From an uncultured Pirellulales bacterium (GTDB lineage: Bacteria; Planctomycetota; Phycisphaerae; Sedimentisphaerales; Anaerobacaceae), in NCBI GenBank assembly GCA_964612465.1, contig CAZTDF010000001.1:2660-66659 (forward strand): DNA of 64,000 nucleotides, given 5' to 3'. Position 1 is the stretch's first letter; every line of letters starts with the position of its first letter. Shown in pieces: positions 43,729 through 63,723 of the stretch. The notes below the pieces were generated by a model that did no database searches, was not told the DNA's origin, and worked only from the letters and a program-made list of their open reading frames with translations. The position numbers were made by a program, and so were the translations under genes.

Positions 43729-43734
43729 ACAAAA

Positions 43735-44130: not shown

Positions 44131-44134
44131 GTAG

Positions 44135-44923: not shown

Positions 44924-44934
44924 AGGAGCACAAG

Positions 44935-46194: not shown

Positions 46195-46237
46195 GTAATC
46201 TGCGTATAAATTTTATTGTAGGAGGATTATTTCTGCC

Positions 46238-46852
46238 GTGCTAAAAGAAACCATAACTAAAAATAAGATCGAGTTGCGGAAGGATTGTCTGACAACGACT
46301 GAACTTGCAAAACTCTGCGGTGTTTCTCGTTTTACTATTATCAATTGGGTTAACCGAGGCAAAATTAGAACAATGAAAACTGTCGGAGGCCATTGCAGGA
46401 TTCCGGTATCCGAAGCAATCGCTTTTTATGAGACTTTTCATGAAGAAAAGACTGGCTTTATATCTGAATCATTGTGCCATTGCTGGGAATATCCACAAAA
46501 GGCCAAGTGCAATAAAGAGTGTAAAGACTGCCTGCTATATAAAAGCCGGATTAATTACTGCTTCGTGGTGGTACGCGAATTTGGCAAAGAAGTGGTCCAT
46601 TGTAAAGGTGATTGTTTGAATTGTGATTATTTTGAAGAGTTTTTCAGTTCTTACAGCAAAATCGAGCAGCTAAACGAGACGGAAGATGGCGAAAGTAAAA
46701 AAAGAGCCAAAGACAAGAAAAGCTTTCTGTATAGTGTCGTATACGGTGTTGGGCGCGGCGTCCAGGAAGTAAAGGAAAGAGTCACGGATATTAAAGAGGT
46801 GTTTGGAGGCAGAGGCTCTCGAACCAAACAGATGGAAGATAGCGATGTCTAA
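46238..46852 (+). CDS. HTH (excisionase/MerR type) + 8-Cys domain transcription factor; short paralog of 36906..38372
   Basis: TTTELAKLCGVSRFTIINWVNRGKIRTMKTVGGHCRIPVSEAIAFY, then CHCWEYPQKAKCNKECKDCLLYKSRINYCFVVVREFGKEVVHCKGDCLNCDYFEEFF. Collinear with the N-terminal 150 aa of the NTase-HEPN fusion. Confidence 0.75.
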   Translation: MLKETITKNKIELRKDCLTTTELAKLCGVSRFTIINWVNRGKIRTMKTVGGHCRIPVSEAIAFYETFHEEKTGFISESLCHCWEYPQKAKCNKECKDCLLYKSRINYCFVVVREFGKEVVHCKGDCLNCDYFEEFFSSYSKIEQLNETEDGESKKRAKDKKSFLYSVVYGVGRGVQEVKERVTDIKEVFGGRGSRTKQMEDSDV

Positions 46853-48158: not shown

Positions 48159-48159
48159 T

Positions 48160-48453
48160 ATGGCGACGGCAGAAAAAAACCAACTTAGTCTGAATGATAA
48201 GCTTTTTACTGTTCGCAGAAAGCCGCTCAAAGAATCACATATCAGGCTCGATAAACAGTTGTGTAAAAAGTGTCTCAATAGAATATGCACATATATATGC
48301 CCGGCAGAGGTTTATATTTGGAGTGAATCCAAAAACGAAATTGATATAAGATATGAAAACTGTCTCGAATGCGGCGCCTGTCGCGTAGCGTGTGACAGCA
48401 TAGAATGGGCAAATCCTGTATGGGGAACAGGGATTGCATATAAGAACAGTTAA
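48160..48453 (+). CDS. fixX: FixX/EtfX ferredoxin-like protein
   Basis: 97 aa. CKKCLNRICTYICPAEV and CLECGACRVACD. Starts 1 nt after fixC. Confidence 0.85.
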   Translation: MATAEKNQLSLNDKLFTVRRKPLKESHIRLDKQLCKKCLNRICTYICPAEVYIWSESKNEIDIRYENCLECGACRVACDSIEWANPVWGTGIAYKNS

Positions 48454-49412: not shown

Positions 49413-50408
49413 TTGAGGGTTGATAAAAAACAGGTCGGTAAAAGTTCGAAGCGATACTACTGGTTGGCTTTTGTTATCGGCGGGATGACGGCTGCTTTAA
49501 TGGGTTGTTTAGTATATTCGTACGTAACCAAAGGTAACCACAGTCTTTTGAGTAGTGCTGTCGGTAATCCCAAGGCGGATGAAGCGAACGTTCGGACTGA
49601 CCCGACGGAGGAGAAGTCTGTTTCGCCATCCGCTTTTCTCGGAGTAGAGATTATGTCTGTGAATGCGGTTATTGCTGAGCAGTTTGGCCTGTCGAATCCG
49701 TGCGGTGTTCTTGTAAACAGCGTTGTTGACGGCTCACCAGCTCAAGAGTCGGGACTTCGAAGAAGTGATGTTATTCTATCCCTGAATAGCATTGCAGTTG
49801 AGGACGTAAACAGCTTCAGAAGTATTATGAGCACTCTAAATCCCGGTGACAATGTGAAAATTGTGTACATAAGAAACAGGCAAAAAGATACAGTCTATGC
49901 CACATTAGCCGACTCATCCGCCGTTCTGAATGTCGCGAAAGATACAAGTGGTTCTGACTGGGGTGTATTGCTGTCTGTTCTCAATTCGGATTTGCGCAGT
50001 TCGCTGCGTATTCCGGCCAATATCGATGGGATTGTGATTCTGTCGGTAACACCAGGTGGCCTGGCGGATCAGGCTGGTTTGCTGCCCGGCGATGTGATTA
50101 CCGGGATTAACAATACGCCAATTGCAGATATGGGCGACTTCTTCGGTGCATTGTCGTCAGACAAAGACGACAAAGTACTTCTGGATGTTTACAGTCAGGG
50201 CACATTACGTTATGTGGCGTTGGATTCATCCGGTGTCGTCACAGCGGTTGCCAGTACACAGACAAGTCTGCTGGACAGAATACTTTCGGCATTTACTGAC
50301 AACGATAACGTCATACTTACCGAACATACAAATGAAGAGGATGATTATGAAAAGCCGGTATGCAAACGGCTCGAGGAATCAGGGGAACGTTATGAAGATG
50401 AAGACTGA
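49413..50408 (+). CDS. Membrane-anchored double-PDZ protein (the PDZ half of a split HtrA; MamP/MamE-C-terminal-like but without heme motifs)
   Basis: TTG start, TM helix YYWLAFVIGGMTAALMGCLVY. PDZ1: GVLVNSVVDGSPAQESGLRRSDVILSLN. PDZ2: GIVILSVTPGGLADQAGLLPGDVITGIN. No CXXCH. Confidence 0.75.
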   Translation: MRVDKKQVGKSSKRYYWLAFVIGGMTAALMGCLVYSYVTKGNHSLLSSAVGNPKADEANVRTDPTEEKSVSPSAFLGVEIMSVNAVIAEQFGLSNPCGVLVNSVVDGSPAQESGLRRSDVILSLNSIAVEDVNSFRSIMSTLNPGDNVKIVYIRNRQKDTVYATLADSSAVLNVAKDTSGSDWGVLLSVLNSDLRSSLRIPANIDGIVILSVTPGGLADQAGLLPGDVITGINNTPIADMGDFFGALSSDKDDKVLLDVYSQGTLRYVALDSSGVVTAVASTQTSLLDRILSAFTDNDNVILTEHTNEEDDYEKPVCKRLEESGERYEDED

Positions 50409-50423
50409 TAAAAAGGTGTGCAG

Positions 50424-51359
50424 ATGAATTTCAAAAAATGGCTTTCGGAAAATATCTTGTGGGTGCTCGTAGCACTTGTCGTAGTTAACTTTCTCATAGT
50501 GTACTGGGGTACTATCAATCTGGGAATCTATGGCACGCGCAGCTCCCTCCTGAGGTGGGACCTGCTGCAGCGCAAGAAACCGCTCTTACAGGAGCAGACC
50601 ACAGCAGCAAATGTAGAAGTTGATACGCTTACAATGCCGGGTCAGCGTCCGAGTACGGTTGCAAGTAATAATCTTGTATTAACATGTGCGGATGATGATT
50701 TGGCCTCTGCCTTTGCGTCTGTCAGGCCTGCGGTTGTCAATATAACTGCGGACAAGGTAACACAGAGAAGAGGCGGGCCGGCTTTGGCAAGTTCAGTTGC
50801 TTTCGATGACCCGTCCATACAATTCGTTGAAGAGGCATCTCTTGGGTCAGGAATTATCGTTGACCACAGGGGTTATATCGTGACCAATGCTCATGTAGTA
50901 GCCAATGCCACAAGTATCAAGGTTGTAACCTTCAGTTCGGCAAGAGTGGTTTATCCAGCCGTAATCATTCGCAAAGACCTGGAAAATGATATTGCCATTT
51001 TGAAGATCGAACTCGACTCGTCTATGCCTACTGTGATTCTCGGAGACTCCGATATGATAAAAGTGGCTGATATAGTTCTGACCGTAGGCTCGCCTTTCGG
51101 GTTAGAGCAAACCGTTACGGCAGGGATTATAAGCGATGATTCAAGAAACCTTGTCATAGACGGCCAAACCTATGATGATATGATTCAGACAGATGCGGCT
51201 ATTAACAGGGGCAATTCCGGCGGACCGCTTATCAACGTAAAAGGCGAGGTCATAGGCATAAACACAGCCATCTACGCTCCTACCGGCGTATTCACAGGTG
51301 TTGGATTTGCGATTCCTATTAACAAGGTAAAACCAATTGTCAAAGAAACAATCAGGTAA
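50424..51359 (+). CDS. Trypsin-like (HtrA/DegP-type) serine protease domain protein with an intact triad and no PDZ (MamE-N-terminal-like)
   Basis: TM anchor ILWVLVALVVVNFLIVYW. His in YIVTNAHVV, Asp in ENDIAILKI, Ser in NRGNSGGPLIN. GTG 50418 is an alternative start. Confidence 0.85.
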   Translation: MNFKKWLSENILWVLVALVVVNFLIVYWGTINLGIYGTRSSLLRWDLLQRKKPLLQEQTTAANVEVDTLTMPGQRPSTVASNNLVLTCADDDLASAFASVRPAVVNITADKVTQRRGGPALASSVAFDDPSIQFVEEASLGSGIIVDHRGYIVTNAHVVANATSIKVVTFSSARVVYPAVIIRKDLENDIAILKIELDSSMPTVILGDSDMIKVADIVLTVGSPFGLEQTVTAGIISDDSRNLVIDGQTYDDMIQTDAAINRGNSGGPLINVKGEVIGINTAIYAPTGVFTGVGFAIPINKVKPIVKETIR

Positions 51360-51364
51360 AAAAT

Positions 51365-51571
51365 ATGTGGCGAACGATAATAGTTGTAATTGTTGTATTG
51401 ATTATTTTCCTGTTTATTGGCGACAATATGCACACAACACGGGTAAATATGCCTTTCACAAACGGCTTTGAGATAAGAACGGTTTTTCTTTTGGCCTTGA
51501 GCTTTATTGTCGGTTACGGCACGGCGTCCCTCGTAGGTTTTATAAAAAACTCCAAAAATAACAAAAAGTGA
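51365..51571 (+). CDS. Small 2-TM protein with a basic tail (LapA/DUF1049-type; MamL-like by architecture)
   Basis: MWRTIIVVIVVLIIFLFIGDNMHTTRVNMPF...FLLALSFIVGYGTASLVGFIKNSKNNKK. Two TM helices and a Lys-rich C-terminus. Lies between the protease and CDF genes. Confidence 0.55.
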   Translation: MWRTIIVVIVVLIIFLFIGDNMHTTRVNMPFTNGFEIRTVFLLALSFIVGYGTASLVGFIKNSKNNKK

Positions 51572-51582
51572 ATTAATTGCAA

Positions 51583-52455
51583 ATGAGCACAATTAAATTA
51601 TATCCAAATCCTGACGATTCAGTTCAACCATTTCTGGCAGGGCTGCTGGCTAATCTGGCGATTGCCATTCTGAAGTTTGGAATAGCCTTACTGGGCGGCA
51701 GCAGGCTGGTTTTGATGGACGGCCTTTTCTCCTTTATGGCGGCAGTGGCTTTTTTGATTCCATGGCAAGCACAGGTTATAGAAAAAAAGCCTCACGATGA
51801 GAGATACCCGTATGGCTTAGGCAAGGTACTGTTTATAAGTATGGCAGTGATCGGCTTTCTTGGTCTGGTTATTTCTGTTCATATGATTTACTACAGCCTG
51901 GTGGTCATGGCTGGACTACAAATGCATGGTTTATACACCCTGGCGATAATGGTCACGATTATATCTGTAATAACCAACGAGGTTCTTTATCGATATCTTG
52001 CGGAGAAAACCAAAAGTTGCTCAAGTACAGTGTTGGCCATGTCCGGGCGTTACAATCGCATCGGTGCGTGGATTTCGTCTTTTGTCCTGTTATTTTTAAT
52101 TCTTTCTTATCTCGGTGGTGCGTATCTTGAGAGGATTGGTGTCGCAATCATTTCAATCGTTGTGTTTTTTATCAGCCTTCGAATGCTTTTTGTGGGCTTT
52201 AGCGGGATTATGGACAAGGTTCCATCACCCAAAATCCTGGAGCGAATAAGGGTATGCACGCAAAAGGTAAGCGAGGAAAAAGAGATTATAAACGTAAAGG
52301 CCAGGTACGTTGGAACACTGCTGCATATTGATATGTGGATAAGAGTAGATGATGAGCTCAGTATGGAGCAGGCCGATAGAATTGCCCGCCGCGTCAAAGT
52401 ACAGTTAATGGAGAAAATTCCTTTCGCAAGAGAAGTGAATGTTATTATCGCATGA
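51583..52455 (+). CDS. Cation diffusion facilitator (CDF) family protein with a degenerate transport site (MamM-like position)
   Basis: CDF landmarks KKPHDERYPYGLGKV and a C-terminal domain (NVKARYVGTLLHIDMWIRVD). TM2 reads LVLMDGLFSFMAAV and TM5 reads LAMSGRYNRIGAW, so the usual HxxxD/[HD]xxxD pairs are missing. TTG 51577 is an alternative start. Confidence 0.7.
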   Translation: MSTIKLYPNPDDSVQPFLAGLLANLAIAILKFGIALLGGSRLVLMDGLFSFMAAVAFLIPWQAQVIEKKPHDERYPYGLGKVLFISMAVIGFLGLVISVHMIYYSLVVMAGLQMHGLYTLAIMVTIISVITNEVLYRYLAEKTKSCSSTVLAMSGRYNRIGAWISSFVLLFLILSYLGGAYLERIGVAIISIVVFFISLRMLFVGFSGIMDKVPSPKILERIRVCTQKVSEEKEIINVKARYVGTLLHIDMWIRVDDELSMEQADRIARRVKVQLMEKIPFAREVNVIIA

Positions 52456-52934
52456 TAACGACTAAGAAAAAAGTTTTTATTTTAGTAGTTGTTTTGGCTT
52501 TAGCTGTCTTATTAATAGCTGGAAGATTGGTAGTATGCGCCAGGACTGCAGGGGTGGCCCAATCTGCTGACAGTTTTGTTTTTAACTTGCCCAATGAGGC
52601 CGGTTTCTACAATATTACCGTCGTTGAATTGAAGACCAGGATAGACAACAAATCCGATAAGAATTTTATAGTCGTCGATATCAGAGATAACGCATCTTAT
52701 GCCCAGGGTCATATACCCGGGGCGATAAACATACCTTTAAATGAACTGGGCTACCGCGTATTCAGTCTGGATAAAACAAAGGACATAATCGTGTATTGCT
52801 TTACCGGCGTAACAAGCCAGGTTGCATGCCAGATACTTGTAAATGCCGGGTTTAAAGATGTGTATAACGTGATAGGCGGAATAAAAGCGTGGAATTATGC
52901 TGTTGAAACAAGCGATGGCAGAGTAGATATTTAA
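52452..52934 (+). CDS. Membrane-anchored rhodanese-domain protein (sulfurtransferase-like)
   Basis: N-terminal TM helix VFILVVVLALAVLLIA. Rhodanese strings VVDIRDNASYAQGHIPGAINIP and active-site loop IIVYCFTGVTSQVA. ATGA overlap with the preceding CDF gene. Confidence 0.8.
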   Translation: MITTKKKVFILVVVLALAVLLIAGRLVVCARTAGVAQSADSFVFNLPNEAGFYNITVVELKTRIDNKSDKNFIVVDIRDNASYAQGHIPGAINIPLNELGYRVFSLDKTKDIIVYCFTGVTSQVACQILVNAGFKDVYNVIGGIKAWNYAVETSDGRVDI

Positions 52935-52970
52935 GAAAAATGAAGAAAAATTTAGTAGAAAGGAGCAAAA

Positions 52971-53168
52971 ATGTTGCACATTGTTGTAGGAATCATCGCA
53001 ATCGTGATTGGACTGTGGGGGATAATGGGCAACTGGTATATGTTCAAAGATATACTGGTTACTATCGTGCCGCTGGCAGTGCTTTTATTTGGAATAGTGG
53101 CAGTATTAGCCGGTATTCGCAAAATGAAAGCAAACTTGGCTGCCAAAGAGAAAAGTGAGGAGGCATAA
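52971..53168 (+). CDS. Small 2-TM protein, MamI-like
   Basis: Strong RBS AAAGGAG 5 nt upstream. MLHIVVGIIAIVIGLWGIMGNWYMFKDILVTIVPLAVLLFGIVAVLAGIRKMK.... The length, hairpin topology and IGLWG...W...VP...G pattern match my recollection of MamI. Sits directly upstream of the MamA-like gene. Confidence 0.55.
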   Translation: MLHIVVGIIAIVIGLWGIMGNWYMFKDILVTIVPLAVLLFGIVAVLAGIRKMKANLAAKEKSEEA

Positions 53169-53171
53169 AAG

Positions 53172-53834
53172 ATGACAAAGAAGAGCGAAACGAAAGAGCC
53201 CAAAAAGGATCAGGCGGTGCCGCTGACCCTTCGGACGCAGAGTTTTTTCGGCAAACTCAGAGGGTGCCTTGATGGTCTTGTTAATGGCTACTGTAATTTA
53301 ACACATATTGAAGCTGTTGAGGCAAAGGAGCTGGTCTTCAAAAAAGCTGCTGCATTGATGGAGCGTGGTCAGTACGGAAAGGCCATTGACCACTACAACA
53401 AATTGATTGGCATGGGTAAAGAAGAAGCGAATATTTATTACAACCTCGGTATCTGTTGTGAGCGGGAAGGTATGGATGAGGAGGCACAGGAGGCTTATAA
53501 GAAGGCATCTGAGATGGACAAATCCCATACGGATGCTGTCTATAGATTAGGACTGTTGGCCATAAAAAACGATGATTCTGAGGCGGCAGTTAAATATCTC
53601 AGTTCTCTTGCCCGCAAGGATAAAACGTCGTTCGACATTATGTATAACCTCGGTGTTGCCTATGACAAGCTCAAGAATTATGAAAAAGCGATAGAGAGCC
53701 TTATCAAGGCGACAAAAATTGAACCAAACTACTCCAAGGTTCACAAACGACTTGGTTACACCTATGAGGCAATGGGTAAGCGTGAAGAAGCTATGGAATG
53801 TTTCAAAAAGGCTATGGAGCTTGAAGAGATTTAG
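53172..53834 (+). CDS. mamA: TPR protein, MamA-like (220 aa)
   Basis: Five or more TPR units. The C-terminal stretch YNLGVAYDKLKNYEKAIESLIKATKIEPNYSKVHKRLGYTYEAMGKREEAMECFKKAMELEE aligns closely with the remembered Magnetospirillum MamA C-terminus (FRLGVALDNLGRFDEAIDSFKIALGLRPNEGKVHRAIAFSYEQMGRHEEALPHFKKANELDE). Its size equals MamA (about 217 aa). Confidence 0.7.
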   Translation: MTKKSETKEPKKDQAVPLTLRTQSFFGKLRGCLDGLVNGYCNLTHIEAVEAKELVFKKAAALMERGQYGKAIDHYNKLIGMGKEEANIYYNLGICCEREGMDEEAQEAYKKASEMDKSHTDAVYRLGLLAIKNDDSEAAVKYLSSLARKDKTSFDIMYNLGVAYDKLKNYEKAIESLIKATKIEPNYSKVHKRLGYTYEAMGKREEAMECFKKAMELEEI

Positions 53835-53845
53835 AAAGGTTCTTT

Positions 53846-54616
53846 ATGGCGATTCCCTTTAGAAAATCAGCCAGCGAAAAACGTCAGGAAAAGGTGCGAG
53901 TGGTCTTAGGTTCAGAGCATTTTCAGAAGAAGCGGTGGCTGCATTTATTTGGCAGGTTTATTGCTGACTATTACATGCCCATTACCATAACGGTACTGAC
54001 GGTAGCTTGTATATATGCTCATATATACTTTTACAACACATTTACCATGATGAAACAGCAGATAGACAATCGGTTAGCGCAGATAGAAGCCGGGCTTCAG
54101 ATGAGAGAAAATATTGTTACCGGCCTGACGGACGTGGTGAAAGGGTTCGTAGCCCATGAAGAGGACATATTCACATCCGCGATAGAGACAAGGAAAGATT
54201 CCATGACCGTCTCAAATGATTTGAAGAAACTGATCGAGGGCGCAAAGCAATTTGCCGGAAACGAATTTTCGCCGACTGGCTTAACAAGGCTTATGGCTGT
54301 GGCGGAGAATTACCCGCAATTAGTCTCAAGCCAGCCGTACAAAGAGCTCGTTGTTCAAATTGCGAAAGTGGAAAGCCAGATTTATGACAAAAGGCTCGAG
54401 TACAGTGACGTCATGAACATTTATAACACCCAACTGGCCACTTTTCCCGGCAATATTTTCGGGAAGATTCTGCGTTTCCAAAAACAGCCGTACTATAGCT
54501 GGGAAAATGAGGCTGAATGGGTGTTTGAAGCAAATTCACAGTTAGCTAAACCACCAGCAAATGTGGAGTCCGAGGGCATTGGCAAGAAATTAGAAGTTGA
54601 GGCTGATTCTAAATAA
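53846..54616 (+). CDS. mamQ: LemA-family membrane protein, MamQ-like
   Basis: N-terminal TM helix YYMPITITVLTVACIYAHIYF, then LemA-type helices (QIDNRLAQIEAGLQMRENIVTGLTDVVKGFVAHEEDIFTSAIETR). Located between the MamA-like and MamB-like genes, as in mamA-mamQ-(R)-mamB synteny. Confidence 0.7.
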   Translation: MAIPFRKSASEKRQEKVRVVLGSEHFQKKRWLHLFGRFIADYYMPITITVLTVACIYAHIYFYNTFTMMKQQIDNRLAQIEAGLQMRENIVTGLTDVVKGFVAHEEDIFTSAIETRKDSMTVSNDLKKLIEGAKQFAGNEFSPTGLTRLMAVAENYPQLVSSQPYKELVVQIAKVESQIYDKRLEYSDVMNIYNTQLATFPGNIFGKILRFQKQPYYSWENEAEWVFEANSQLAKPPANVESEGIGKKLEVEADSK

Positions 54617-54762
54617 AGGCAGCCTGAGTAAACAAAATAGAAAGTGATGTACCCTTGAAGGGTAATAAAATCCCGCGAGCGGAATTGTAAATTGTTGTAA
54701 AGTACCTTATCCGCGAACGAATGGGGGAATTCAATTTGGAGCACCATATAAAGGTCTGATCT

Positions 54763-55653
54763 GTGGCGATAGTGTGTAAACAATGTAATTGGTGTGTCAA
54801 GCATGTTGGCGGTTTGAATCTGTTTGGCAATATTCTTCTGCTTGCCATAAAGCTTTTAGGTGGAATATTCGGCAGAAGCCAGGCATTGATTGCCGATGCC
54901 TTGCATTCTCTAGGTGATGTTGTTGTGGCACTTATGTTACTGGTTAGCTTGAAGGTATCTTCTGTTCCACCGGATGAGGATCATCACTGGGGCCATGGCA
55001 ATATTGAGTATATCACCTCGGTCATAATAGGTGTATTGCTTATCTGTGCGGCCATTATGATTTCCATATCCGCGATATTTACTATCGTCACAGGAAGGAT
55101 GGATGATCCGGGCATTCTGGCGGTATGGGCGGCTTTGATATCTATTATTGTCAACGGAATTTTATGCAAACAGGGTATTTGTGTCGGCGAACAAATAAAT
55201 TCGCCCGTGATGATAGCAAACGCCCGGGAGAAAAGGTCAGATGCTTACACTTCTCTTGCCGCTCTGATAGGTGTTTTCGGTGCAAAGATGGGGTTTATAT
55301 TCTTAGATCCTGTTGCTGCTATTGTTGTTGGTTTTATGATTGCCAAATTCGGATTAGATACGCTTCTTGAAGGGGTCAAAGGCATATCCGACCGGTCTTT
55401 TGACAAAGAGACCCTTGCCAGCGTGAAAAGACTGGTCTTAAAGAAGGAAAGTATAAAAGATATAGGCCGATTAAGAGCCAGGCAAATCGGCCAGAAAAAT
55501 TGGATCGATCTTGAAGCGATTTTCGCTCCTGAAGTGAAAGTCTCGGAAGTAAGAACTACAATCGCAAGTCTTAGAAAAGACATAATGGAGCGATTCGAGG
55601 GGATAGCTGACGTGGTGATCATATCCCGTGCGTCAAAGCCGGAACTAAAGTAA
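54763..55653 (+). CDS. mamB: CDF transporter, MamB-like, copy 1
   Basis: GTG start. N-terminal CKQCNWC. TM2 ALIADALHSLGDVV. Loop PPDEDHHWGHGNIEYITS. TM5 CVGEQINSPVMIANAREKRSDAYTS. These are collinear with the remembered MamB strings ALVADSLHSGADVV, KPADERYPFGYGNIQYISS and CVGNENNSPAIIANAWDNRSDAISS. Confidence 0.75.
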   Translation: MAIVCKQCNWCVKHVGGLNLFGNILLLAIKLLGGIFGRSQALIADALHSLGDVVVALMLLVSLKVSSVPPDEDHHWGHGNIEYITSVIIGVLLICAAIMISISAIFTIVTGRMDDPGILAVWAALISIIVNGILCKQGICVGEQINSPVMIANAREKRSDAYTSLAALIGVFGAKMGFIFLDPVAAIVVGFMIAKFGLDTLLEGVKGISDRSFDKETLASVKRLVLKKESIKDIGRLRARQIGQKNWIDLEAIFAPEVKVSEVRTTIASLRKDIMERFEGIADVVIISRASKPELK

Positions 55654-55692
55654 ATACAGTTATCATACTTATCACATAACGAATTTAAAACT

Positions 55693-56595
55693 ATGGCAGT
55701 TGTTTGTAAAAGATGTTACTGGTGTGCCAAGCATGTCGGAGGGCTAAACTTTTGGGGCAATCTCGCCCTTCTGGTCGTAAAGCTGTTGGGCGGCATATTC
55801 GGCAGAAGCCAGGCTCTAATCGCCGATGCTGTTCATTCTCTAAGCGACGTTATCGTATCGATATTGCTTATAATCAGCTTAAAGGTCTCTTCGACGCCGC
55901 CGGACGAAGATCATCCATGGGGCCATGGTAATGTAGAATTTATCGTATCAGCCATATTTGGGGTGTTGCTTGTTTGTGCGGCTGTGGCTATTACCGCAGT
56001 GTCGATTACCTCGATTATTCAGGGAAATGTATACAATACAAGTATTTTGGCTGTGTGGGCGGCGGTCATATCCGTTGTCGCTAATGATATAATGTTCAGA
56101 CATTCCTTTTGTGTAGGCCAGAAGGTGAATTCTCCTGCAATGATAGCAAATGCCTTGGAGAACAGGGCCGATGTGTGGTCGTCGCTGGCAGTATTAGCAG
56201 GTGTTTTTGGTGCAAGGATTGGGTTTCCGGTTCTTGACCCCATTGCTGCCGTTATTGTAGGTTTTATGATTGCTAAAAATGGGATAGAAACATTGGTTTT
56301 AGGAATTAAAGGCATGACTGACCGGTCTTTTGACAAGGGAATGCTTGCCCAGGTAAAAAAAATAGTCCTGGAAGAAGTCGCCATAAAAGATGTAAGCAGG
56401 CTGCGTTCCAGACAGATCGGACAAAAAAACTGGATAGACATTGAGGCAATGTTTGATCCACAGATAAAAGTTTCAGAGGTAAAAAAGATAATCGAGAGAA
56501 TTAAGAAAAACATAATGGAAAAATTCGAAAAGATCGGGGATGTGGTAATTGTGTCCCGTGTATCAGAACCCCAGTTAAAGTTAAAGGAAATATAA
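55693..56595 (+). CDS. mamB: CDF transporter, MamB-like, copy 2 (tandem paralog)
   Basis: N-terminal CKRCYWC. ALIADAVHSLSDVI. PPDEDHPWGHGNVEFIVS. CVGQKVNSPAMIANALENRADVWSS. Roughly two-thirds identical to copy 1 by eye. Confidence 0.75.
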   Translation: MAVVCKRCYWCAKHVGGLNFWGNLALLVVKLLGGIFGRSQALIADAVHSLSDVIVSILLIISLKVSSTPPDEDHPWGHGNVEFIVSAIFGVLLVCAAVAITAVSITSIIQGNVYNTSILAVWAAVISVVANDIMFRHSFCVGQKVNSPAMIANALENRADVWSSLAVLAGVFGARIGFPVLDPIAAVIVGFMIAKNGIETLVLGIKGMTDRSFDKGMLAQVKKIVLEEVAIKDVSRLRSRQIGQKNWIDIEAMFDPQIKVSEVKKIIERIKKNIMEKFEKIGDVVIVSRVSEPQLKLKEI

Positions 56596-56597
56596 CT

Positions 56598-59500
56598 ATG
56601 ATATGGGCAAAGAATAAGGATAAAAAGAAAAAGTTAAAAACAATAACTGATGACATGACGCCCAGAGAAAAAGAACAGGTGCTGGAATATAAGAAGCGGG
56701 TAATCAGGCGATGGGCCATAGTGGTAGGGCTTCTGGCTCTTGCAACCTTTGGCTTCCTTTTTATGACGCTGCTTGACCATGTGATTAAAGGTACCCCTGA
56801 CGGTGGGCTTGAGATAAACTACAATAAGCTGGATGCAAAGCTCGCCTGGCTCGGTGCTGAGATTCGGGATTTAGACGCTACTATCAGTAGTGCACTTGGT
56901 TTAACCTCAAGCGAGGGGGTCCTCGTAAACAATGTAACATCAGGTTCACCGGCAGATCAGGTGGGTTTGCAGAGAGGCGACGTTATTATTTCCCTTGATG
57001 GAAGCAAGGTAGTCGATACCTTACAGATACAGGACCGGCTTCGGAAACTTAAACCTGGAGATACTGTCAAGCTTGTTTTAGATAAAGTAAATGGCGGCAA
57101 GAAAAATGTTTATGTTACACTTGGCGTCAAACCGGACGATGATGCTGCAACAACTGATACAAAGATTAAAAAAGTAGCAGGAACCACCGATACTGCTGTT
57201 AATCCGGTATTGTCCACGCATTGGGGAATATCGGTGTCGCCGCTGACAGATGATGCAAGGGTTGCATTCAAAATACCCGAGAAAGTTCAAGGCGTTCTTG
57301 TTGTTGCAGTCGTGCGGGGCAGTCTTGCCGATTCGCAGGGCATTAAGGTTGGAGATGTTATTGTAAGTATCAACCAGGTTTCTACGCCTAACCTGCAGGT
57401 TTTTTATCAGGCTCTCAAAGATGTTGAGAGTGTTTTGATGGATGTTTATTCATCTTCTGACGATAAAAGATTCTTTGTAACGTTTCCTGACGAAGGTGAT
57501 TCACCGCCACAAGTTGTGATGATGAGTTTTGATGAAAAAGTGGCCGAAACCCATCGTATTATCATTCCTTCTGACATGGCAGGCTTGAACGGTCAGGTTT
57601 ATTCCCGGTTTGCATCTGCTCCATATTTTATTCTGTATGATTTCAATACAAATCAGCCGACCGTAATCACTAATCCGTATGCATTACAGGTTCGCGGTGC
57701 GGGGATACCCTTAGCGCAAATGCTGATAGAACAAAAAATTGATGCCGTAATAGTAGGCGGAATAGGTCCGCAGGTATTTGATATCTTTTATCTTGCCAAA
57801 GTTAAAATCTATGGACCAGTTACAGGCAGTGTGCGAACCGCGATAACTAATTATCAGTTAGGCAAATTGCCTGAATTAAAGGAAGCTAACCTTGCCGGAT
57901 ACGGCAATTCATCGACAGCCACAATTCCGACAGGCGGCTCACCTAGGACAGAGACGGATGATACCGCTGATGATGAAGAAAGTGATGGTCTGTCCGGTCA
58001 GCCTTCGGTTATTCCACCTAAAGGCAAACCCCTCGAACTTACTGCCCAGGGCGATGCCCGTGCAAGCAGGCCGGAAACCTGCGTCTGCCCCAGATGTGGC
58101 ACAGAAGTAACTCATCCGGCAAGTACTGCCTGTGCTGATATGGTATGTCCCATTTGCGGTTCTCAGCTTATGACAGCATCGCCTGGAACTGATTCAATTA
58201 CCGGCACGGATATGACAACCCAGCTTCCAGCGACACAGATACCAACCCAGTTGAGACCTATTTCCTTAGCGGCAGGCAGTACAGTAGCACCGACAAGCCC
58301 ACCCAGCAGAATAGCAGCGATACCAACAGCCGCCAATCTATGGGCAATAAGCAATCAGCCCTCAACTACACCGCCTACAACAACACCAGTACAACAAACG
58401 GCGGGTTCTTCAACAACGGTTTGTATATGTCCTCTTGATGGCACAACAGTGACCCATCCGGTTGGTATTCCATGTTCTGCTCTTCAGTGTCCAGTTTGCG
58501 GCGGCAGAATGGTAAGTGCCAGCAGTGCAATCATTGATGGCAGCCAGATATCCAAAACTGCCGGGGTGGTAGTTGGCGGCAAACCCGATGATGTCCCACC
58601 GGTTCAGCAGGTATTTTACATACTTCCTGTTGGCGGCAAACCGGATGACATACCGCCGTCAATGGGTGGCTCGGCACAAACCGTTTCACTTGTTACGATT
58701 GGCGGCAAACCGGACGATGTACCGCCTGTTCAGCAGACATTCTACTTACTGCCAGTAGCCGGCGGACCTCCTGAGGGTATGGGCAGCGCTCCGACTGATA
58801 CCGGCAGTGCTCCGGCTGATGTGGGAGGCTCATCGCAGAGTGCTCGTTCGACAACATGTATATGTCCTGTGGATGGCACAACGGTAACCCATCCGATAGG
58901 TGTTCCCTGTTCGCAGCTTAGCTGTCCTATATGTGGTTCTCGTATGGTTAATGCCGCCCCCGGCGGTGATACTGCCGGCGGTGCAATTCAAACAGGCGGC
59001 AAACCCGATGATGTTCCACCGGTTCAGCAGGCATTTTACTTACTTCCTGTCGGCGGCAAACCGGATGACGTACCGCCTGTCCAGCAGGCCTTTTTCTTAG
59101 TGCCGGTATCGAGCCAGCCTGATGGTGTGCCGCCTTTAGGCCAGAGCACACAGTCGGTAACTCAAGCTCAAAGGACGTCGCTTGTTACGATAGCCGGCGG
59201 ACCTCCGGAGGGTATGGGTATGGGAGGGGCAGCTGATACAGGCACTGCCGTAGATGGGCCGGCACAGGGTGGTGGTCAGTCTGGCTCCGGTGCGGCCCAG
59301 ACTGGTCGCTCAGATTTATGTGTGTGCCCAATGTGTGGCGTAACCGTAACGCATCCAATATCTGTTCCGTGTTCCTCACTTACATGTCCCGTCTGCGGCT
59401 CTCGATTGGTTAACCAAACCCCTGGAGGCACAAGCGGCAATACAGCCGGCAGCAGTTTAGTACCGACAGCGGCAATTACAGTTGCTGCGACATCGAACAT

Positions 59501-59963
59501 AGTTCATGTAGCGGGGAGTTCTAAAAAATTGGTTATCCCATCCACAGGCAGAACTCTTAAATCTAATATTGCGCCGTTACTCGACGATGCTCGTTATTTC
59601 TTAATGTTCGGATTAGGAACATATGAAGCGGTACCCAATCCATATTACAGGGACAAAAGGGCAAGTGGAGATGAAATCGGTCAGTTCATAGTGGCTGAAG
59701 GCGGTTCGATTGTTATTTGCAATAACGTAAGTGCCACAGCACTCAAAGCACTCAAGGACCTGAAAGTCAAGGTATACACCGGCTTTGTGGGCACAGTTCA
59801 GCAGGCTCTTGACATATACAATGATGGCAGGATCAAGGATTCATCGACAGGGAGTGTTCTTGATGATGAAGAAGAACATGGCGGCGGTGGGCCGCCTTCA
59901 TCAAAAACCAAGTCTTCTAAAGAAAAAGACAAAGACAAAGATAATGACACGGAGGTATTTTAG
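56598..59963 (+). CDS. 1121-aa membrane-anchored multidomain protein: TM - PDZ - PDZ - NifX/NifB-type (Nitro_FeMo-Co) domain - four Cys/His knuckle modules interleaved with GGKPDDVPP repeats - second NifX-type domain - acidic/basic tail
   Basis: TM helix WAIVVGLLALATFGFLFMTLL. PDZ: GVLVNNVTSGSPADQVGLQRGDVIISLD and GVLVVAVVRGSLADSQGIKVGDVIVSIN. NifX-like 1: FASAPYFILYDFNTNQPTVITNPY...GAGIPLAQMLIEQKIDAVIVGGIGPQVFDIFYLAKVKIYGPVTGSVRTAITNY. NifX-like 2: LDDARYFLMFGLGTYEAVPNPYY...GDEIGQFIVAEGGSIVICNNVSATALKALKDLKVKVYTGFVGTVQQALDIY. Confidence 0.8.
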   Translation: MIWAKNKDKKKKLKTITDDMTPREKEQVLEYKKRVIRRWAIVVGLLALATFGFLFMTLLDHVIKGTPDGGLEINYNKLDAKLAWLGAEIRDLDATISSALGLTSSEGVLVNNVTSGSPADQVGLQRGDVIISLDGSKVVDTLQIQDRLRKLKPGDTVKLVLDKVNGGKKNVYVTLGVKPDDDAATTDTKIKKVAGTTDTAVNPVLSTHWGISVSPLTDDARVAFKIPEKVQGVLVVAVVRGSLADSQGIKVGDVIVSINQVSTPNLQVFYQALKDVESVLMDVYSSSDDKRFFVTFPDEGDSPPQVVMMSFDEKVAETHRIIIPSDMAGLNGQVYSRFASAPYFILYDFNTNQPTVITNPYALQVRGAGIPLAQMLIEQKIDAVIVGGIGPQVFDIFYLAKVKIYGPVTGSVRTAITNYQLGKLPELKEANLAGYGNSSTATIPTGGSPRTETDDTADDEESDGLSGQPSVIPPKGKPLELTAQGDARASRPETCVCPRCGTEVTHPASTACADMVCPICGSQLMTASPGTDSITGTDMTTQLPATQIPTQLRPISLAAGSTVAPTSPPSRIAAIPTAANLWAISNQPSTTPPTTTPVQQTAGSSTTVCICPLDGTTVTHPVGIPCSALQCPVCGGRMVSASSAIIDGSQISKTAGVVVGGKPDDVPPVQQVFYILPVGGKPDDIPPSMGGSAQTVSLVTIGGKPDDVPPVQQTFYLLPVAGGPPEGMGSAPTDTGSAPADVGGSSQSARSTTCICPVDGTTVTHPIGVPCSQLSCPICGSRMVNAAPGGDTAGGAIQTGGKPDDVPPVQQAFYLLPVGGKPDDVPPVQQAFFLVPVSSQPDGVPPLGQSTQSVTQAQRTSLVTIAGGPPEGMGMGGAADTGTAVDGPAQGGGQSGSGAAQTGRSDLCVCPMCGVTVTHPISVPCSSLTCPVCGSRLVNQTPGGTSGNTAGSSLVPTAAITVAATSNIVHVAGSSKKLVIPSTGRTLKSNIAPLLDDARYFLMFGLGTYEAVPNPYYRDKRASGDEIGQFIVAEGGSIVICNNVSATALKALKDLKVKVYTGFVGTVQQALDIYNDGRIKDSSTGSVLDDEEEHGGGGPPSSKTKSSKEKDKDKDNDTEVF
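58575..59109 (+). repeat. In-frame tandem/interspersed coding repeats encoding GGKPDD[VI]PP[VS]QQ.F[YF][LI][LV]PV (six copies)
   Basis: The DNA unit ggcggcaaacc(c/g)ga(t/c)ga(t/c)gt(a/c/t)cc(a/g)cc(g/t)gt(t/c)cagcag recurs at about 58575, 58632, 58701, 58995, 59052 and, degenerate, at 59110. Read directly. Confidence 0.8.
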
Positions 59964-60871
59964 TGACGGAAAGTAAGCTCGAAAAACTTATAAAAACAAA
60001 GAAACACTCAAAAGCTAATGTGATTATGATCATAATAGTTGTCGGATTTATTATTCTCATAGTGTGCCAATCGGCTTTTATGGGTTTCACAATGAAGGAA
60101 CAAACCAGAACGACTACTGCCCCTCAGGATGGTTCTATCCGAAGCAGCAACATTGCACTGACGGCTTCGAATATACAGCTTGTTGCGTGCACGGATGACG
60201 ACCTTACAGATGCGGTTTCTGCAGTAAAGAGAGCAGTTGTGAATATAGACGTAGCCCCGGCTGATGTTGGTTCTGCGAATAGAAGGGGTGAGCCTGCTTT
60301 GAGTTTTGATATGCCCTCGACAGCAGCCCTGCAAACAAACGAAGAAACTCTTGGTTCAGGTGTTATCGTTGATGCACGTGGGTATATTCTTACCTGCTAC
60401 CACTTAATAAAAGATTGCCCGAACGTTAATGTGAGTGTTTTTAGTTCTGTGCGTCAGATATACAAAGCCCAGGTTGTTGATGTCGATATTACAAATGACC
60501 TTGCAATCCTGAAGATAGAATCGGACAGGCCTTTGCCGGCAGTAAAACTGGCAAACTCCGATCTGGTCAAGATAACCGATGCGATTCTTGCTATCGGTTC
60601 GCCGTTTGGTTTCGAGCACACAGTAACCGCTGGGATAGTCAGCGATAACAAGCGAAGTATCGTCATTGGTAATACTGTTTACAAAGATATGTTACAGACG
60701 GATGCGGCAATAAACCGCGGTAGTGCCGGCGGTGCTTTGATAAATGGTGCCAGCGAAATCATTGGTATTAATACCGCCATCGCGTCTCCATCGGGATATT
60801 TTTCAGGCGTCAGTTTTGCCATACCAATAAACAAGGCCAGGCCGCTGTTGCTGAAGGCAATTGATGGCTGA
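59963..60871 (+). CDS. Trypsin-like (HtrA-fold) pseudoprotease: His and Asp retained, nucleophile Ser replaced by Ala (MamO-like logic)
   Basis: TM anchor VIMIIIVVGFIILIVCQSAF. YILTCYHLI (His) and TNDLAILKI (Asp). DAAINRGSAGGALIN aligns column for column with DAAINRGNSGGPLIN of the active paralog at 50424. GTG start overlaps the upstream stop by 1 nt. Confidence 0.8.
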   Translation: MTESKLEKLIKTKKHSKANVIMIIIVVGFIILIVCQSAFMGFTMKEQTRTTTAPQDGSIRSSNIALTASNIQLVACTDDDLTDAVSAVKRAVVNIDVAPADVGSANRRGEPALSFDMPSTAALQTNEETLGSGVIVDARGYILTCYHLIKDCPNVNVSVFSSVRQIYKAQVVDVDITNDLAILKIESDRPLPAVKLANSDLVKITDAILAIGSPFGFEHTVTAGIVSDNKRSIVIGNTVYKDMLQTDAAINRGSAGGALINGASEIIGINTAIASPSGYFSGVSFAIPINKARPLLLKAIDG

Positions 60872-60882
60872 GAGACAAGTCG

Positions 60883-62070
60883 ATGAAAAAGTTTATACAA
60901 TGGATAGCAGCGAAAGCCATTAAAGATCACCAGAGCGTTAATGATCTGAAGGTCAGGTCACGTTATGGAGCACTTGAAGGCTGGACAAGTATTGTTATCA
61001 ATTTGCTGCTGTTTATTGTTAAGATAGTCCTTGGTCTTTCGATAAGAAGCGTATCTTTGATTGCTGACGCTGTTCATACATTGGCCGATTCCGGCACTTC
61101 AGCGGTAGTTATAATCGGATTTAAAATAGCACGAAAGCCGTCGGATAAAGAACACCCGTTTGGCCATGGGAGAATGGAATCAGTAGCGGCCCTGGTCGTT
61201 TCGGTGTTACTATTTATGGCGGGTTTGGAACTATTGGAAAAGTCGATTCATGCCATTATCAAACCGCAAAGCTCTACAGCTCCGACCGGTGTGATTTTAG
61301 TAATCATCGCAACTATTGTGATAAAGGAACTGATGGCGAGGTTTTCCTATCAGCTTGGCGAGATTATTGATTCGCAGGCTCTTAAGGCAGACGCCCTTCA
61401 TCATCGAAGTGATGTAATCGCTACCGCTCTGGTAGTCGTTGCACTTATCGCAACGCGATTCGGTTATAATAATATTGATGGTATAATGGGCGTTGGTGTT
61501 TCTCTGATTATTTTTTACTCAGCCTTCTTGATTGCCAAAGAAGCGGTCAATCCTTTGCTGGGCGAGGCGCCTTCAAAAGAAAAGATTAAGGAAATAGAAA
61601 AACTGGCAATGACTCACGAAGGAGTTTTGGGCGTTCACGACATAATCTTTCACAAATACGGCCAAACGAGTGTGATCTCTTTGCATATAGAGGTATCGGA
61701 TAAGGATTCTGCTTTCAAGCTTCATGAGCTTGCAGAGCAAGTGGAAGATACAATCACTCAGAAGATTCCTGGAATGGCGGTTGTCCATGTCGATCCGTTA
61801 AACAAGGACCACCCTCAGTATGAGCAAATCACCATGGCTATAAAAGATATTATCTCTGAAGACATAAGAGTAAGTGCTTTTCATGATTTAAGAATCGTCG
61901 GTTGTCGTGCGAATAGATGTAACGTGGTTTTCGACATTGTTTTGGAGCAAGACGCTGATGAGCAGGAAACTCACGACATGATCCATTCTATAGCCGAGAA
62001 GTTCAAAACGAAGTTCCCTGAAATGAAGACAGTTATTAAAGCTGAACCGAAATACGCGTATAATATTTAG
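60883..62070 (+). CDS. CDF transporter with a canonical HxxxD/HxxxD site and an extended (duplicated) C-terminal domain
   Basis: TM2 LIADAVHTLADSG. Loop KPSDKEHPFGHGRMES. TM5 LKADALHHRSDVIAT. 395 aa with two successive CTD-like segments (GVHDIIFHKYGQTSVISLHIEV and AFHDLRIVGCRANRCNVVFDIVL). Confidence 0.85.
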   Translation: MKKFIQWIAAKAIKDHQSVNDLKVRSRYGALEGWTSIVINLLLFIVKIVLGLSIRSVSLIADAVHTLADSGTSAVVIIGFKIARKPSDKEHPFGHGRMESVAALVVSVLLFMAGLELLEKSIHAIIKPQSSTAPTGVILVIIATIVIKELMARFSYQLGEIIDSQALKADALHHRSDVIATALVVVALIATRFGYNNIDGIMGVGVSLIIFYSAFLIAKEAVNPLLGEAPSKEKIKEIEKLAMTHEGVLGVHDIIFHKYGQTSVISLHIEVSDKDSAFKLHELAEQVEDTITQKIPGMAVVHVDPLNKDHPQYEQITMAIKDIISEDIRVSAFHDLRIVGCRANRCNVVFDIVLEQDADEQETHDMIHSIAEKFKTKFPEMKTVIKAEPKYAYNI

Positions 62071-62080
62071 CACTATTATC

Positions 62081-62425
62081 ATGAATCTAATAAAGAAGAA
62101 ACTGGCCGATTTCTTAAACGAGATGAGTAACAAGGGTATAGATAAGATGGATCCGAAGAGTTCTTGCGCTAAATCTTTAAAGGATTTAGATAGAGAGACG
62201 CTCCTAAAAGAGGATATCGAGCGAATTTGCGATGAGATGCGAGTCTTGGAGGCAGGAAAAATCTTGAGATTATCCAACAAACTCATGTGGTCAGGCACAG
62301 CAAATAAGGATGAATTTAGAAAAGAAATAAAATCGATGGCTTCTAAAGTATTGAAACGTGTGGAAAAGAAAGGCGGAAAACTAAATCTTCCACGACAATG
62401 TCGAGATTTGCTGATGAATTTGTAA
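62081..62425 (+). CDS. Hypothetical soluble helical protein (114 aa)
   Basis: ORF 10 nt after the CDF gene. Its 3' end overlaps the EcsC-like gene by 28 nt. No recognisable motif. Confidence 0.45.
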   Translation: MNLIKKKLADFLNEMSNKGIDKMDPKSSCAKSLKDLDRETLLKEDIERICDEMRVLEAGKILRLSNKLMWSGTANKDEFRKEIKSMASKVLKRVEKKGGKLNLPRQCRDLLMNL

Positions 62426-63279
62426 GAGGATTACCAGTGAAGCTAAGTGAATATGAGATCAAAAGCTTGCGAGAAATAAAAAAATGGGAGAAGGACAAAC
62501 ATAAGGGCTTTCATAAGAAAGTCCTCGATGTTGTTTCCAGACCAGTGGATTATGTCCTCGGTAAGATTGGGCAAAGAAAACTCAAAATTTTTGAAGATGC
62601 TGTTGAGAAAACCGTCAATAATCTGCTAACTACTTCAACCTCTACAGTTGATGCCGAAGATCTGATAAAAAGGGCTCATGCTCATGGTGTGATGATAAAA
62701 GACCTGTCGGAACTGAAAGATTGTGATTTGGGATTGTTAGACAATTGTAACCGAAAACATATAAAATTCCACGAGAAGGCGAGTGCTATACAAGGTGCGG
62801 TAGGTGGTCTTGGGGGCATAGTGGTAGCAACAGTGGATCTAACAGCACTTTTGGTCCAGGATTTTCATATGATTCAGGAAATCGCATTTTGCTATGGTTT
62901 CGATCCGAACGATATTATCGAGAAAGAGATAATACTAAGAATAATCGAAATCGGTGTTGGCGGCTCAGAGATAAAATTCAAGGCATTACAGGAAATAGAC
63001 GCCTTAAAAAAAATAAAGACCAAAGTAAGTAAGAAAAAAACAACAAAAAAAGGTGCTTCGGTTCTGGGTTCAAAAGCCTTGGAGGAATACATCGAACAAC
63101 TGACCACAGCTTTGATCGTTCGCCTGGTGCCGCGTGCCCTGCCTGTAGTATCAATGGCGGTAAGTGCTCATTCGAATCACGAAATAATAGAGCATTCGGG
63201 AAAAGCGGCTTTTATGGTTTATCGAAGGCGATTCATTGAAAGGAAAAAGAAAACAATAGAACGACGATATAAGAAATAG
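62398..63279 (+). CDS. EcsC-family protein
   Basis: 293 aa. The central GAVGGLGGIVVATVDLTALLVQDFHMIQEIAFCYGFDPND and the C-terminal LVPRALPVVSMAVSAHSNHEIIEHSGKAAFMVYRRRF are typical of EcsC-family proteins as I recall them. Confidence 0.65.
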   Translation: MSRFADEFVRGLPVKLSEYEIKSLREIKKWEKDKHKGFHKKVLDVVSRPVDYVLGKIGQRKLKIFEDAVEKTVNNLLTTSTSTVDAEDLIKRAHAHGVMIKDLSELKDCDLGLLDNCNRKHIKFHEKASAIQGAVGGLGGIVVATVDLTALLVQDFHMIQEIAFCYGFDPNDIIEKEIILRIIEIGVGGSEIKFKALQEIDALKKIKTKVSKKKTTKKGASVLGSKALEEYIEQLTTALIVRLVPRALPVVSMAVSAHSNHEIIEHSGKAAFMVYRRRFIERKKKTIERRYKK

Positions 63280-63303
63280 ACCAAATAGAAAGGGGAATTA
63301 GCA

Positions 63304-63723
63304 ATGGATGTAACTGATTATTACTGTCCGACAACCGTAACAAGTACGCTTGGTTACTCCATGGGTCGGGCCGTCGGAGCTGCGAGGATAATAACAGTCG
63401 ATGCCATCAATCCTGTTAAAGCCGGTGCCGCCGTAGCTATTTTGTGGGGAAGTATAGCTGCTCTGGTAAATGTAAAAAAATATAAGCAGGGCAAAATAAC
63501 AAAACGGGATGCTGTTGTTGATACAGGAGGCGAAGCGGTAGGCCTGGGACTGGCTGCCGGCCTTGGCTTATTGGCAAGTAATGCAGTAAGAGCTTCGGTC
63601 CTGGTTGCCTCTACCACTTCGCTTGTTCCGTTTACCGTAGGTGTCGCAGTAACATCAGGTATGAAGGTGATGTGGAATTGCAGCACAAAGAAACATCTCA
63701 AATGTCAACCAAAACCATCGTAA
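63304..63723 (+). CDS. Small 2-3 TM protein with a MamC/Mms13-like inter-helix loop
   Basis: AGAAVAILWGSIAALVNVKKYKQGKITKRDAVVDTGGEAVGLGLAAGLGLLASNAV compared with the remembered MamC [55 protein letters not shown]. Shared pattern K..IT...A..DTG.E.VG.GLA. Confidence 0.5.
   Translation: MDVTDYYCPTTVTSTLGYSMGRAVGAARIITVDAINPVKAGAAVAILWGSIAALVNVKKYKQGKITKRDAVVDTGGEAVGLGLAAGLGLLASNAVRASVLVASTTSLVPFTVGVAVTSGMKVMWNCSTKKHLKCQPKPS

Follow-up and report, generated by a model that had tools for sequence, protein, structure and literature searches.

No protein of the magnetosome membrane is more abundant in model strains than MamC (Mms13), which also serves as the standard anchor in magnetosome display and is the leading example of a proposed magnetite-templating protein. 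The reviews consulted either list mamC for Pseudomonadota only or describe the whole mamGFDC operon as missing in deltaproteobacterial magnetotactic bacteria. Two acidic residues of its loop, Glu66 and Asp70 (8 Å), have been proposed as a magnetite template, Fe binding has been described as well, and the loop affects magnetite in vitro (PMC6584501). Here we describe a MamC-family gene for a 139-residue protein, located near the end of a 64,000-nucleotide stretch of DNA (contig CAZTDF010000001.1 of assembly GCA_964612465.1, uncultured Pirellulales bacterium; hereafter the window) and encoded in a magnetosome gene cluster of the kind assigned to Planctomycetota. The gene had been pointed out in a first-pass annotation of the window as encoding a homolog or an analog of MamC. 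In a literature search no paper was found tying MamC to Planctomycetes or to these clusters; at the database level the homology is already present, in that the Pfam MamC family matches the protein.

Homology of the 139-residue protein to MamC

The full translation of the open reading frame (ORF) at 63304-63723 was MDVTDYYCPTTVTSTLGYSMGRAVGAARIITVDAINPVKAGAAVAILWGSIAALVNVKKYKQGKITKRDAVVDTGGEAVGLGLAAGLGLLASNAVRASVLVASTTSLVPFTVGVAVTSGMKVMWNCSTKKHLKCQPKPS. The sole NCBIfam match was MamC (NF038051; E 1.5e-7, residues 41-109 against model positions 13-81), and the sole match in the Pfam scan was HupE_UreJ_2 (PF13795; E 4.4e-5), which covered a Gly/Ala-rich stretch and reached 23.6 bits, below its gathering threshold of 24.5 bits. 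The Pfam family PF26373 (MamC) was absent from the Pfam version scanned, and is recorded, unmarked (E <= 1e-5), among the precomputed annotations of the identical protein as a tag that carries no bit score or gathering threshold; by this tag the protein belongs to the superfamily. Close homologs numbered 75 (133-167 residues, mostly 137-141), nearly all of them tagged PF26373, and the same tag is recorded on canonical-scoring MamC proteins.

A profile built from 37 family members (A1) was searched against 1.84 billion representative proteins and gave 72 relatives. Proteins P0135-P0138 were retrieved by this profile at a library-wide E of about 1e-4, and scored 73, 99, 59 and 56 bits, respectively, on NF038051. 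In profile-profile comparison with hhalign, A1 was aligned with the MamC alignment A2 at a probability of 98.9% (E 3.4e-17, 87 columns) and the window family with the canonical MamC subset at E 7.4e-14; over all MamC sets the probabilities were 98.1-98.9%, with 79-87 collinear columns. Control alignments, in which the MamC alignment was reversed or its columns were shuffled, gave E >= 0.02, so that Gly/Ala-rich composition is not the cause of the match. The joint alignment ran without gaps through positions 50-96, with a common signature of N56, Y60, G63, T66, A70, [DN]73-T74, E77, G80 and G82 followed by K121-x-x-W124-[DN]125. The elements were also found in collinear order: a first transmembrane segment (TM1) ending in N, a charged helix (xA..[DN]T..E..G.G), a Gly/Ala-rich hydrophobic region and K-x-x-W-[DN]. 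N56 was kept in all four groups of the superfamily described below. A search of PDB sequences matched only MamC-loop chimeras (E 0.6-1.6, non-significant), entries that hold just the 21-residue loop.

Judged from these sequence comparisons, the resemblance to MamC is homology, neither chance nor convergence, which settles the choice left by the first-pass annotation in favour of a homolog. The protein is a distinct subfamily of the MamC superfamily and not an orthologous MamC. Its hhalign match to MamC begins only at about residue 44, so that a conserved N-terminal domain with the motif DYYCP lies outside the aligned region; in this domain D5 and Y6 are invariant, and Y7, P9, T11, T15, Y18, G21 and R22 are at least 90% conserved.

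Acidic residues of the loop

The loop, ALVNVKKYKQGKITKRDAVVDTGGEAVGLGLAAGLG, is flanked by Gly/Ala-rich hydrophobic stretches in the 139-residue protein, exactly as it had been quoted in the first-pass annotation, and 10 of its 21 residues are identical to those of the AMB-1 MamC loop. The MamC sequence used there for the comparison agrees, over the 21-residue loop that can be checked, with PDB entries 5mm3, 6eqz and 5e7u, which are maltose-binding protein chimeras bearing the MamC/Mms13 loop. The D-A-V-V-D pair noticed at MamC spacing was likewise recovered: D69 and D73 (GAT at 63508-63510 and GAT at 63520-63522) align with MamC E66 and D70 at i/i+4, and E77 (GAA at 63532-63534) aligns with E74, the E of MamC GKETVG. 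The helical state of this segment is a low-confidence prediction (residues 67-98 in the AlphaFold2 model).

Within the close family, D69 is present in 66 of the 75 sequences, D73 in 71 and E77 in all 75. E77 is also the best-conserved acid throughout the superfamily (21/23 distant members and 24/27 MamC-like proteins), and A70 is near-invariant throughout. The noticed pair is thus part of an i/i+4/i+8 acid ladder, D69-D73-E77, whose carboxylates, by helix geometry, would lie on one helical face.

Gene, start context and protein segments

The gene starts 24 nt after the stop codon of the upstream EcsC gene, and no terminator-like site was found between the two; because of the 24-nt spacing, they are probably co-transcribed. 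An antisense ORF (63354-63701, 115 residues) was considered as a coding rival and rejected, as conservation, homologs and start context all favour the ORF on the + strand. By hydropathy, a polar stretch (residues 57-76) separates the first hydrophobic span (38-56) from a second hydrophobic region of 43-45 residues (77-121), which may be read as one long span or as a hairpin around N93-R96. The segments of the protein and the genes of the cluster are listed in Table 1.

Table 1. Positions in the window of the MamC-family gene, its protein segments and the surrounding magnetosome genes
Feature	Position	Strand	Description and basis
MamC-family gene, window subfamily 'A'	63304..63723	+	ATG-start ORF, 139 aa, stop included
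Shine-Dalgarno-like AAGGGG	63290..63295	+	8 nt upstream of ATG; from sequence
Subfamily-specific N-terminal domain, aa 1-36	63304..63411	+	M..DYYCPTTVTSTLGY.GR; not part of canonical MamC
First hydrophobic helix, aa 38-56	63415..63471	+	Ends in superfamily-wide N56; hydropathy; AlphaFold2 helix 37-61, low confidence
Charged helical 'MamC loop', aa 57-77	63472..63534	+	N-terminal half K/R-rich; alignment to MamC
Second hydrophobic region, aa 78-121	63535..63666	+	Ends in conserved G113...K121; hydropathy, AlphaFold2
Interface motif K121-x-x-W124-[DN]125, then basic tail with C126 and C134	63664..63720	+	Motif common to MamC (KY.WD)
Magnetosome gene cluster	49413..63723	+	MamE-Cter (PDZ), MamE-Nter (trypsin), MamB/M-like cation diffusion facilitator (CDF), rhodanese, MamA, MamQ, two MamB-like CDFs
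Magnetosome gene cluster, continued	within 49413..63723	+	1121-aa PDZ + NifX-like protein, trypsin (MamO/E-like), CDF/114-aa/EcsC/MamC-like module
FieF-like CDF transporter, 395 aa	60883..62070	+	Pfam Cation_efflux + ZT_dimer; NCBIfam FieF 181 bits, MamM 161, MamB 143
114-aa protein, conserved partner gene	62081..62425	+	Synteny
EcsC-family protein, 293 aa	62398..63279	+	Immediately upstream of the MamC-like gene; Pfam EcsC E 1.7e-38

Magnetosome gene cluster and related loci

The cluster is of the split-MamE type of Planctomycetota and allied uncultured phyla, a type of cluster proposed to make greigite. Its first part follows the same order as the 'greigite' mamAB-like operon of multicellular magnetotactic prokaryotes (PMC9145555). 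The non-alphaproteobacterial appearance remarked on in the first-pass annotation agrees with the nearest loci, which are metagenome-assembled genomes (MAGs) of Planctomycetota/Pirellulales with split MamE-Cter and MamE-Nter genes. Two of these loci (MAG_18080_pl_157 and MAG_11118_pl_115) were described by Uzun et al. (2020), who group Planctomycetes with putative greigite-type clusters. No magnetochrome match was reported for the PDZ proteins of the window, and the 114-residue protein gave no significant family match in Pfam or NCBIfam.

With one genome per GTDB species scanned, 14 related loci were obtained from at least 5 labelled phyla, the labels being Planctomycetota/Pirellulales, Ca. Aegiribacteria, Anaerolineales, Ca. 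Hydrogenedentes, a Guaymas deltaproteobacterium and a Desulfobacteraceae MAG. In all 14, homologs of the FieF-like CDF and/or of EcsC are found no more than about 1 kb, or one to two genes, away from the MamC-like gene, often together with the 114-residue protein. The FieF-like CDF gene is syntenic in related loci; an EcsC homolog is present in 13/14, all except the truncated L011, and is adjacent to the MamC-like gene, within about 1 kb of it or one to two genes away; a homolog of the 114-residue protein is adjacent in L002, L005, L008, L012 and L014. The CDF/EcsC linkage persists under permuted gene order (L008, L013 and L014). In related loci the cluster extends beyond the point that matches the window end.

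In the Desulfobacteraceae MAG (L014, 9929-12976), the four-gene module, with genes for the MamC-like protein, a FieF-like CDF, EcsC and a 116-residue protein, is surrounded by ordinary genes (YcaO, GT4, GH130, response regulator, CitMHS and MIP). The distant subfamily members P0174 and P0178 lie at the edge of other types of magnetosome gene cluster, with magnetochrome, TauE-PDZ, LemA and TPR proteins and two CDFs.

Within the window cluster, a rhodanese (sulfurtransferase) gene is located at 52452-52934, and the 1121-residue protein (56598-59963) combines a pair of PDZ domains with a NifX/NafY-like domain ('dinitrogenase FeMo-cofactor'). In a pathway to an iron sulfide (greigite), either gene could have a place in the handling of sulfur or Fe-S.

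Groups of the superfamily and relatives in ferrosome clusters

By hhalign the superfamily falls into four groups: the window family with its distant relatives (A and B; A against B, E 3.7e-49), a Ser-rich group C, canonical MamC, and a group encoded in fez (ferrosome) clusters. Canonical MamC and the fez group form the closest pair (E 1.2e-30) and are roughly equidistant from the window family (E about 1e-14).

Group C consists of paralogs ('MKEWSNKPS...', about 140-200 residues) that match the window family at E 2.3e-17. They differ from it in a long Ser/Thr-rich N-terminus and in positions 69 and 77, which are usually non-acidic, D73 alone being kept. A group C copy of about 190 residues is found 4.5-9 kb downstream in Planctomycetota-type clusters (L003 14463-15062, L004 16565-17146 and L005 18639-19226); the window itself holds no such copy, as it stops short of this position. 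In locus L015 (5230-11204), the group C gene P0100 heads ten small or unknown ORFs (147, 69, 147, 60, 64, 60, 80, 105, 530 and 280 residues) without Pfam matches; genes for a PAS histidine kinase and a GerE response regulator precede this run. The idea that P0100 stands in a non-magnetosome context was dropped, as group C also occurs inside Planctomycetota magnetosome clusters.

MamC-family proteins of Desulfonema ishimotonii (DENIS_4510), Seleniivibrio (WP_295223434) and metagenomes scored 56-76 bits on NF038051. The MamC-like genes of fez clusters (L018 8001-8486; L019/L020 8001-8327; L021 7121-7522; L022 2669-3070) lie between two P1B-ATPases, one of the FezB-type P1B-6 kind with DYSCA, HNxxT and an R-rich N-terminus and the other with CPC; the DYSCA and HNxxT motifs were seen beside the relatives in L018, L019 and L021. 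An HMA protein, a FeoA-domain protein and small GxxxG proteins are also encoded in these clusters, a gene content that fits the larger fez clusters as defined in a preprint on ferrosomes (bioRxiv 10.1101/2020.01.10.902569). Judged by profile comparison, canonical MamC's closest relatives are in fez clusters. No paper linking MamC with ferrosomes was found in the literature search, and this link may be a more interesting lead than the window gene itself. A match to E1-E2 ATPase, by which a fez cluster would be recognised, was not found in the scanned window ORFs, including all those of at least 90 residues at 49.4-63.7 kb.

Proposed role and alternative explanations

The protein is probably a small integral membrane protein, representing a deep-branching branch of the MamC superfamily that belongs to split-MamE clusters, and handling iron or mineral at the magnetosome membrane. 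This reading builds on the demonstrated homology, which takes in TM1, the charged helix, the hydrophobic region after it and K-x-x-W-D, on the acid ladder, and on the linkage to the CDF, 114-residue and EcsC genes. The protein would reside in the magnetosome membrane, and its amphipathic charged helix, with three carboxylates on one face, would bind Fe2+ or nascent iron mineral; alternatively, the helix might pass iron on from the adjacent CDF transporter or couple to the transporter. Nucleation and crystal size could thereby be tuned, by analogy with what has been proposed for MamC (PMC6584501). Because MamC relatives occur in ferrosome clusters and in proposed-greigite clusters, a generic feature, for iron or mineral binding or for the organelle membrane, is a likelier reading of the motif than a magnetite-lattice template.

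A number of observations weigh against assigning the protein such a role. On NF038051, an equivalog model with a curated cut-off of 100 bits, the protein scored 31.7 bits, a value from which neither orthology with MamC nor equal function would follow; relatives of P0136 did pass the cut-off (P0157, 122 bits; P0158, 131; P0156, 104; P0153, 102), all of them with PF26373. None of the MamD, MamF and MamG models matched among the scanned cluster ORFs. Many MamC-like proteins and the distant members have Q, A or K at position 69 and N at position 73; these positions are often non-acidic in the more distant relatives, so that the acidic pair is typical of the family without being universal. In L014 no mam genes were found within 10 kb on either side of the four-gene module, and the module may exist independently of magnetosome clusters. 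The 'greigite-type' label of the clusters is itself an inference of Uzun et al. In Magnetospirillum, strains that lack MamC show only a mild phenotype. The AlphaFold2 model, run on the 37-sequence alignment, was of low confidence (pLDDT 50, pTM 0.27) and too poor for a fold search. Finally, the loop carries about 6 K/R against 3 D/E, and in a three-helix model, with the second hydrophobic region folded as a hairpin, a cytoplasmic position of both loop and C-terminus follows from the positive-inside rule (K+R 10.9 against 3.4).

The orientation of the loop accordingly differs between models. With residues 77-121 as one span, the loop would be lumenal, as accepted for MamC, and the charge counts allow this two-span model. 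Two cysteines, C8 (63325-63327, in DYYCP) and C126 (63679-63681, in W-x-C), are both present in 56 sequences and both absent in 18, with only one of them in 10. Their joint gain and loss may reflect a shared metal site or disulfide, with the termini on the same side of the membrane, although few independent clades contribute and phylogeny confounds the pattern; such an arrangement would mean an even number of spans and a loop on the opposite side.

The main rival, which we regard as rather unlikely but as a real competitor, is that the protein serves the CDF/EcsC module as an accessory or scaffold subunit, with a cytoplasmic K/R-rich helix and basic tail and no contact with the crystal; transporter docking, membrane shaping via small-xxx-small packing and iron sensing are its possible jobs. 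The linkage to CDF and EcsC genes across the 14 loci in spite of permuted order, and in L014 without nearby mam genes, speaks for it, as does the positive-inside count of the three-helix model. The fez relatives adjoin P1B-ATPases, which would make the family transporter-linked in both settings, and small GxxxG proteins were given membrane or interaction roles in the ferrosome preprint (bioRxiv 10.1101/2020.01.10.902569). However, a lumenal position is generally assigned to the homologous loop of MamC, which affects magnetite in vitro (PMC6584501), the co-occurrence of C8 and C126 hints, over few independent clades, at a loop opposite to the termini, and the acid ladder is the best-conserved polar feature of the protein.

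It is less probable still that the protein already bears a mad/man name given in deep-branching magnetotactic bacteria, in which case the MamC link would re-label a known magnetosome gene; such an outcome would be compatible with a role in iron or mineral handling. Distant members do occur in magnetosome gene clusters with the HEAT and coiled-coil proteins typical of mad23-26 neighbourhoods and with small ORFs, and many mad genes encode small uncharacterised proteins. Yet about 180 relatives are labelled only 'hypothetical' or 'membrane protein', 'MamC-like' was not found as a term in the literature search, and Mad2 of RS-1, compared by description only, has about 215 residues (from mutation coordinates) and is described as lacking obvious homology. 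NCBIfam and Pfam as searched contain no Mad or Man profiles.

An artefact of Gly/Ala-rich transmembrane helices combined with a chance loop match, or convergence from another family such as HupE/UreJ-like proteins, would agree with the lone HupE_UreJ_2 match of the Pfam scan, the non-significant PDB matches and the low NCBIfam score, but it is highly improbable and already largely refuted by real alignments at 1e-14 to 1e-17 against the control values, collinear columns, reciprocal detection among 1.84e9 proteins, the match of the Pfam MamC model, the sub-threshold score of HupE_UreJ_2, and a conservation that peaks in the polar loop and K-x-x-W-D and not in the Gly/Ala-rich stretches.

Remainder of the window

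On the other side of the window, twelve tandem paralogous ORFs of 805-843 residues, all of which combine a MacB-like periplasmic core domain with an FtsX permease domain, occupy 3501-31989, an unusually large array. It is interrupted by an ABC ATPase (23680-24381), preceded by a histidine kinase and an HlyD-type fusion protein, and followed by a TolC-like outer-membrane protein (32001-33680). A DDE transposase (33980-35176), an integrase-like transposase (35275-36354, - strand) and an HTH-nucleotidyltransferase-HEPN protein (36906-38372, - strand) come next. Exactly at these three genes (33980-38372) the GC content drops, from about 50-62% across the permease array to about 40-46% on the magnetosome-cluster side, which suggests a genomic-island boundary.

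Just upstream of the mam genes (41605-48453) lie a 707-residue coiled-coil and HEAT-repeat protein, resembling the HEAT/coiled-coil neighbours in locus L029, and a FixABCX-like set made up of electron-transfer flavoprotein (ETF) beta, ETF alpha with a Fer4 domain, an ETF-QO-like flavoprotein and a ferredoxin. A redox supply for biomineralisation is a possible function of this set.

Implications and comparison with known systems

A conserved MamC-family gene with the same acidic positions is thus present in clusters thought to make greigite, and closer relatives of MamC are present in ferrosome clusters of bacteria not known as magnetotactic. The argument that the spacing of Glu66 and Asp70 is tuned to the magnetite lattice is weakened, and a shared protein toolkit for bacterial iron organelles is suggested. 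A wider proposal, put forward tentatively and falling short of an even chance, is that MamC is not a magnetite-specific invention of proteobacteria and that it descends, as a single branch, from an ancient family of small proteins in the membranes of bacterial iron-mineral organelles, the other branches being found in proposed-greigite clusters of Planctomycetota and allied phyla, with the window gene among them, in other deep-branching magnetosome clusters and in fez clusters; E66 and D70 would then be part of an ancestral, mineral-independent Fe-binding ladder (D/E-x3-D-x3-E), and MamC would link ferrosome and magnetosome evolution. Practical limits are set by the uncultured state of the hosts and by the mild harm that loss of MamC does in model strains; the natural variant is usable for a comparison of magnetite with greigite nucleation.

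The relatives in fez clusters match the window family at an hhalign E of 8.7e-15 and share the superfamily signature with it, among other positions the counterpart of E77 and K-Y-L-W-D, and both kinds of gene adjoin an iron or metal transporter gene in an iron-organelle cluster. They resemble canonical MamC far more than they resemble the window protein; they are paired with a P1B-6 ATPase and are without the DYYCP domain, whereas the window protein has a CDF partner and the DYYCP domain, and their hosts are not known as magnetotactic.

MamC (Mms13) itself belongs to the same Pfam family as the window family and has the same order of elements, from a Gly/Ala-rich TM1 ending in N through a charged helical segment and a Gly/Ala-rich hydrophobic region to K-x-x-W-D, and both the window gene and mamC of magnetotactic Pseudomonadota are encoded in a magnetosome gene cluster. 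The window family differs in its extra conserved 36-residue N-terminal DYYCP domain, in a second hydrophobic region that is 7 residues longer (from hhalign gaps), in a more basic loop (family mean 5.8 K+R against 3.0 D+E), and in a basic tail with conserved cysteines (W-[ND]-C...K-C), where the near-canonical MamC protein P0136 has a strongly acidic tail. The gene neighbours differ as well: CDF, 114-residue and EcsC genes lie upstream and a PDZ protein gene downstream of the window gene, in place of the mamGFDC/mamCDF-type operon of MamC, and the host is Planctomycetota-like with a cluster of the proposed greigite type, unlike the magnetotactic Pseudomonadota in which MamC is known.

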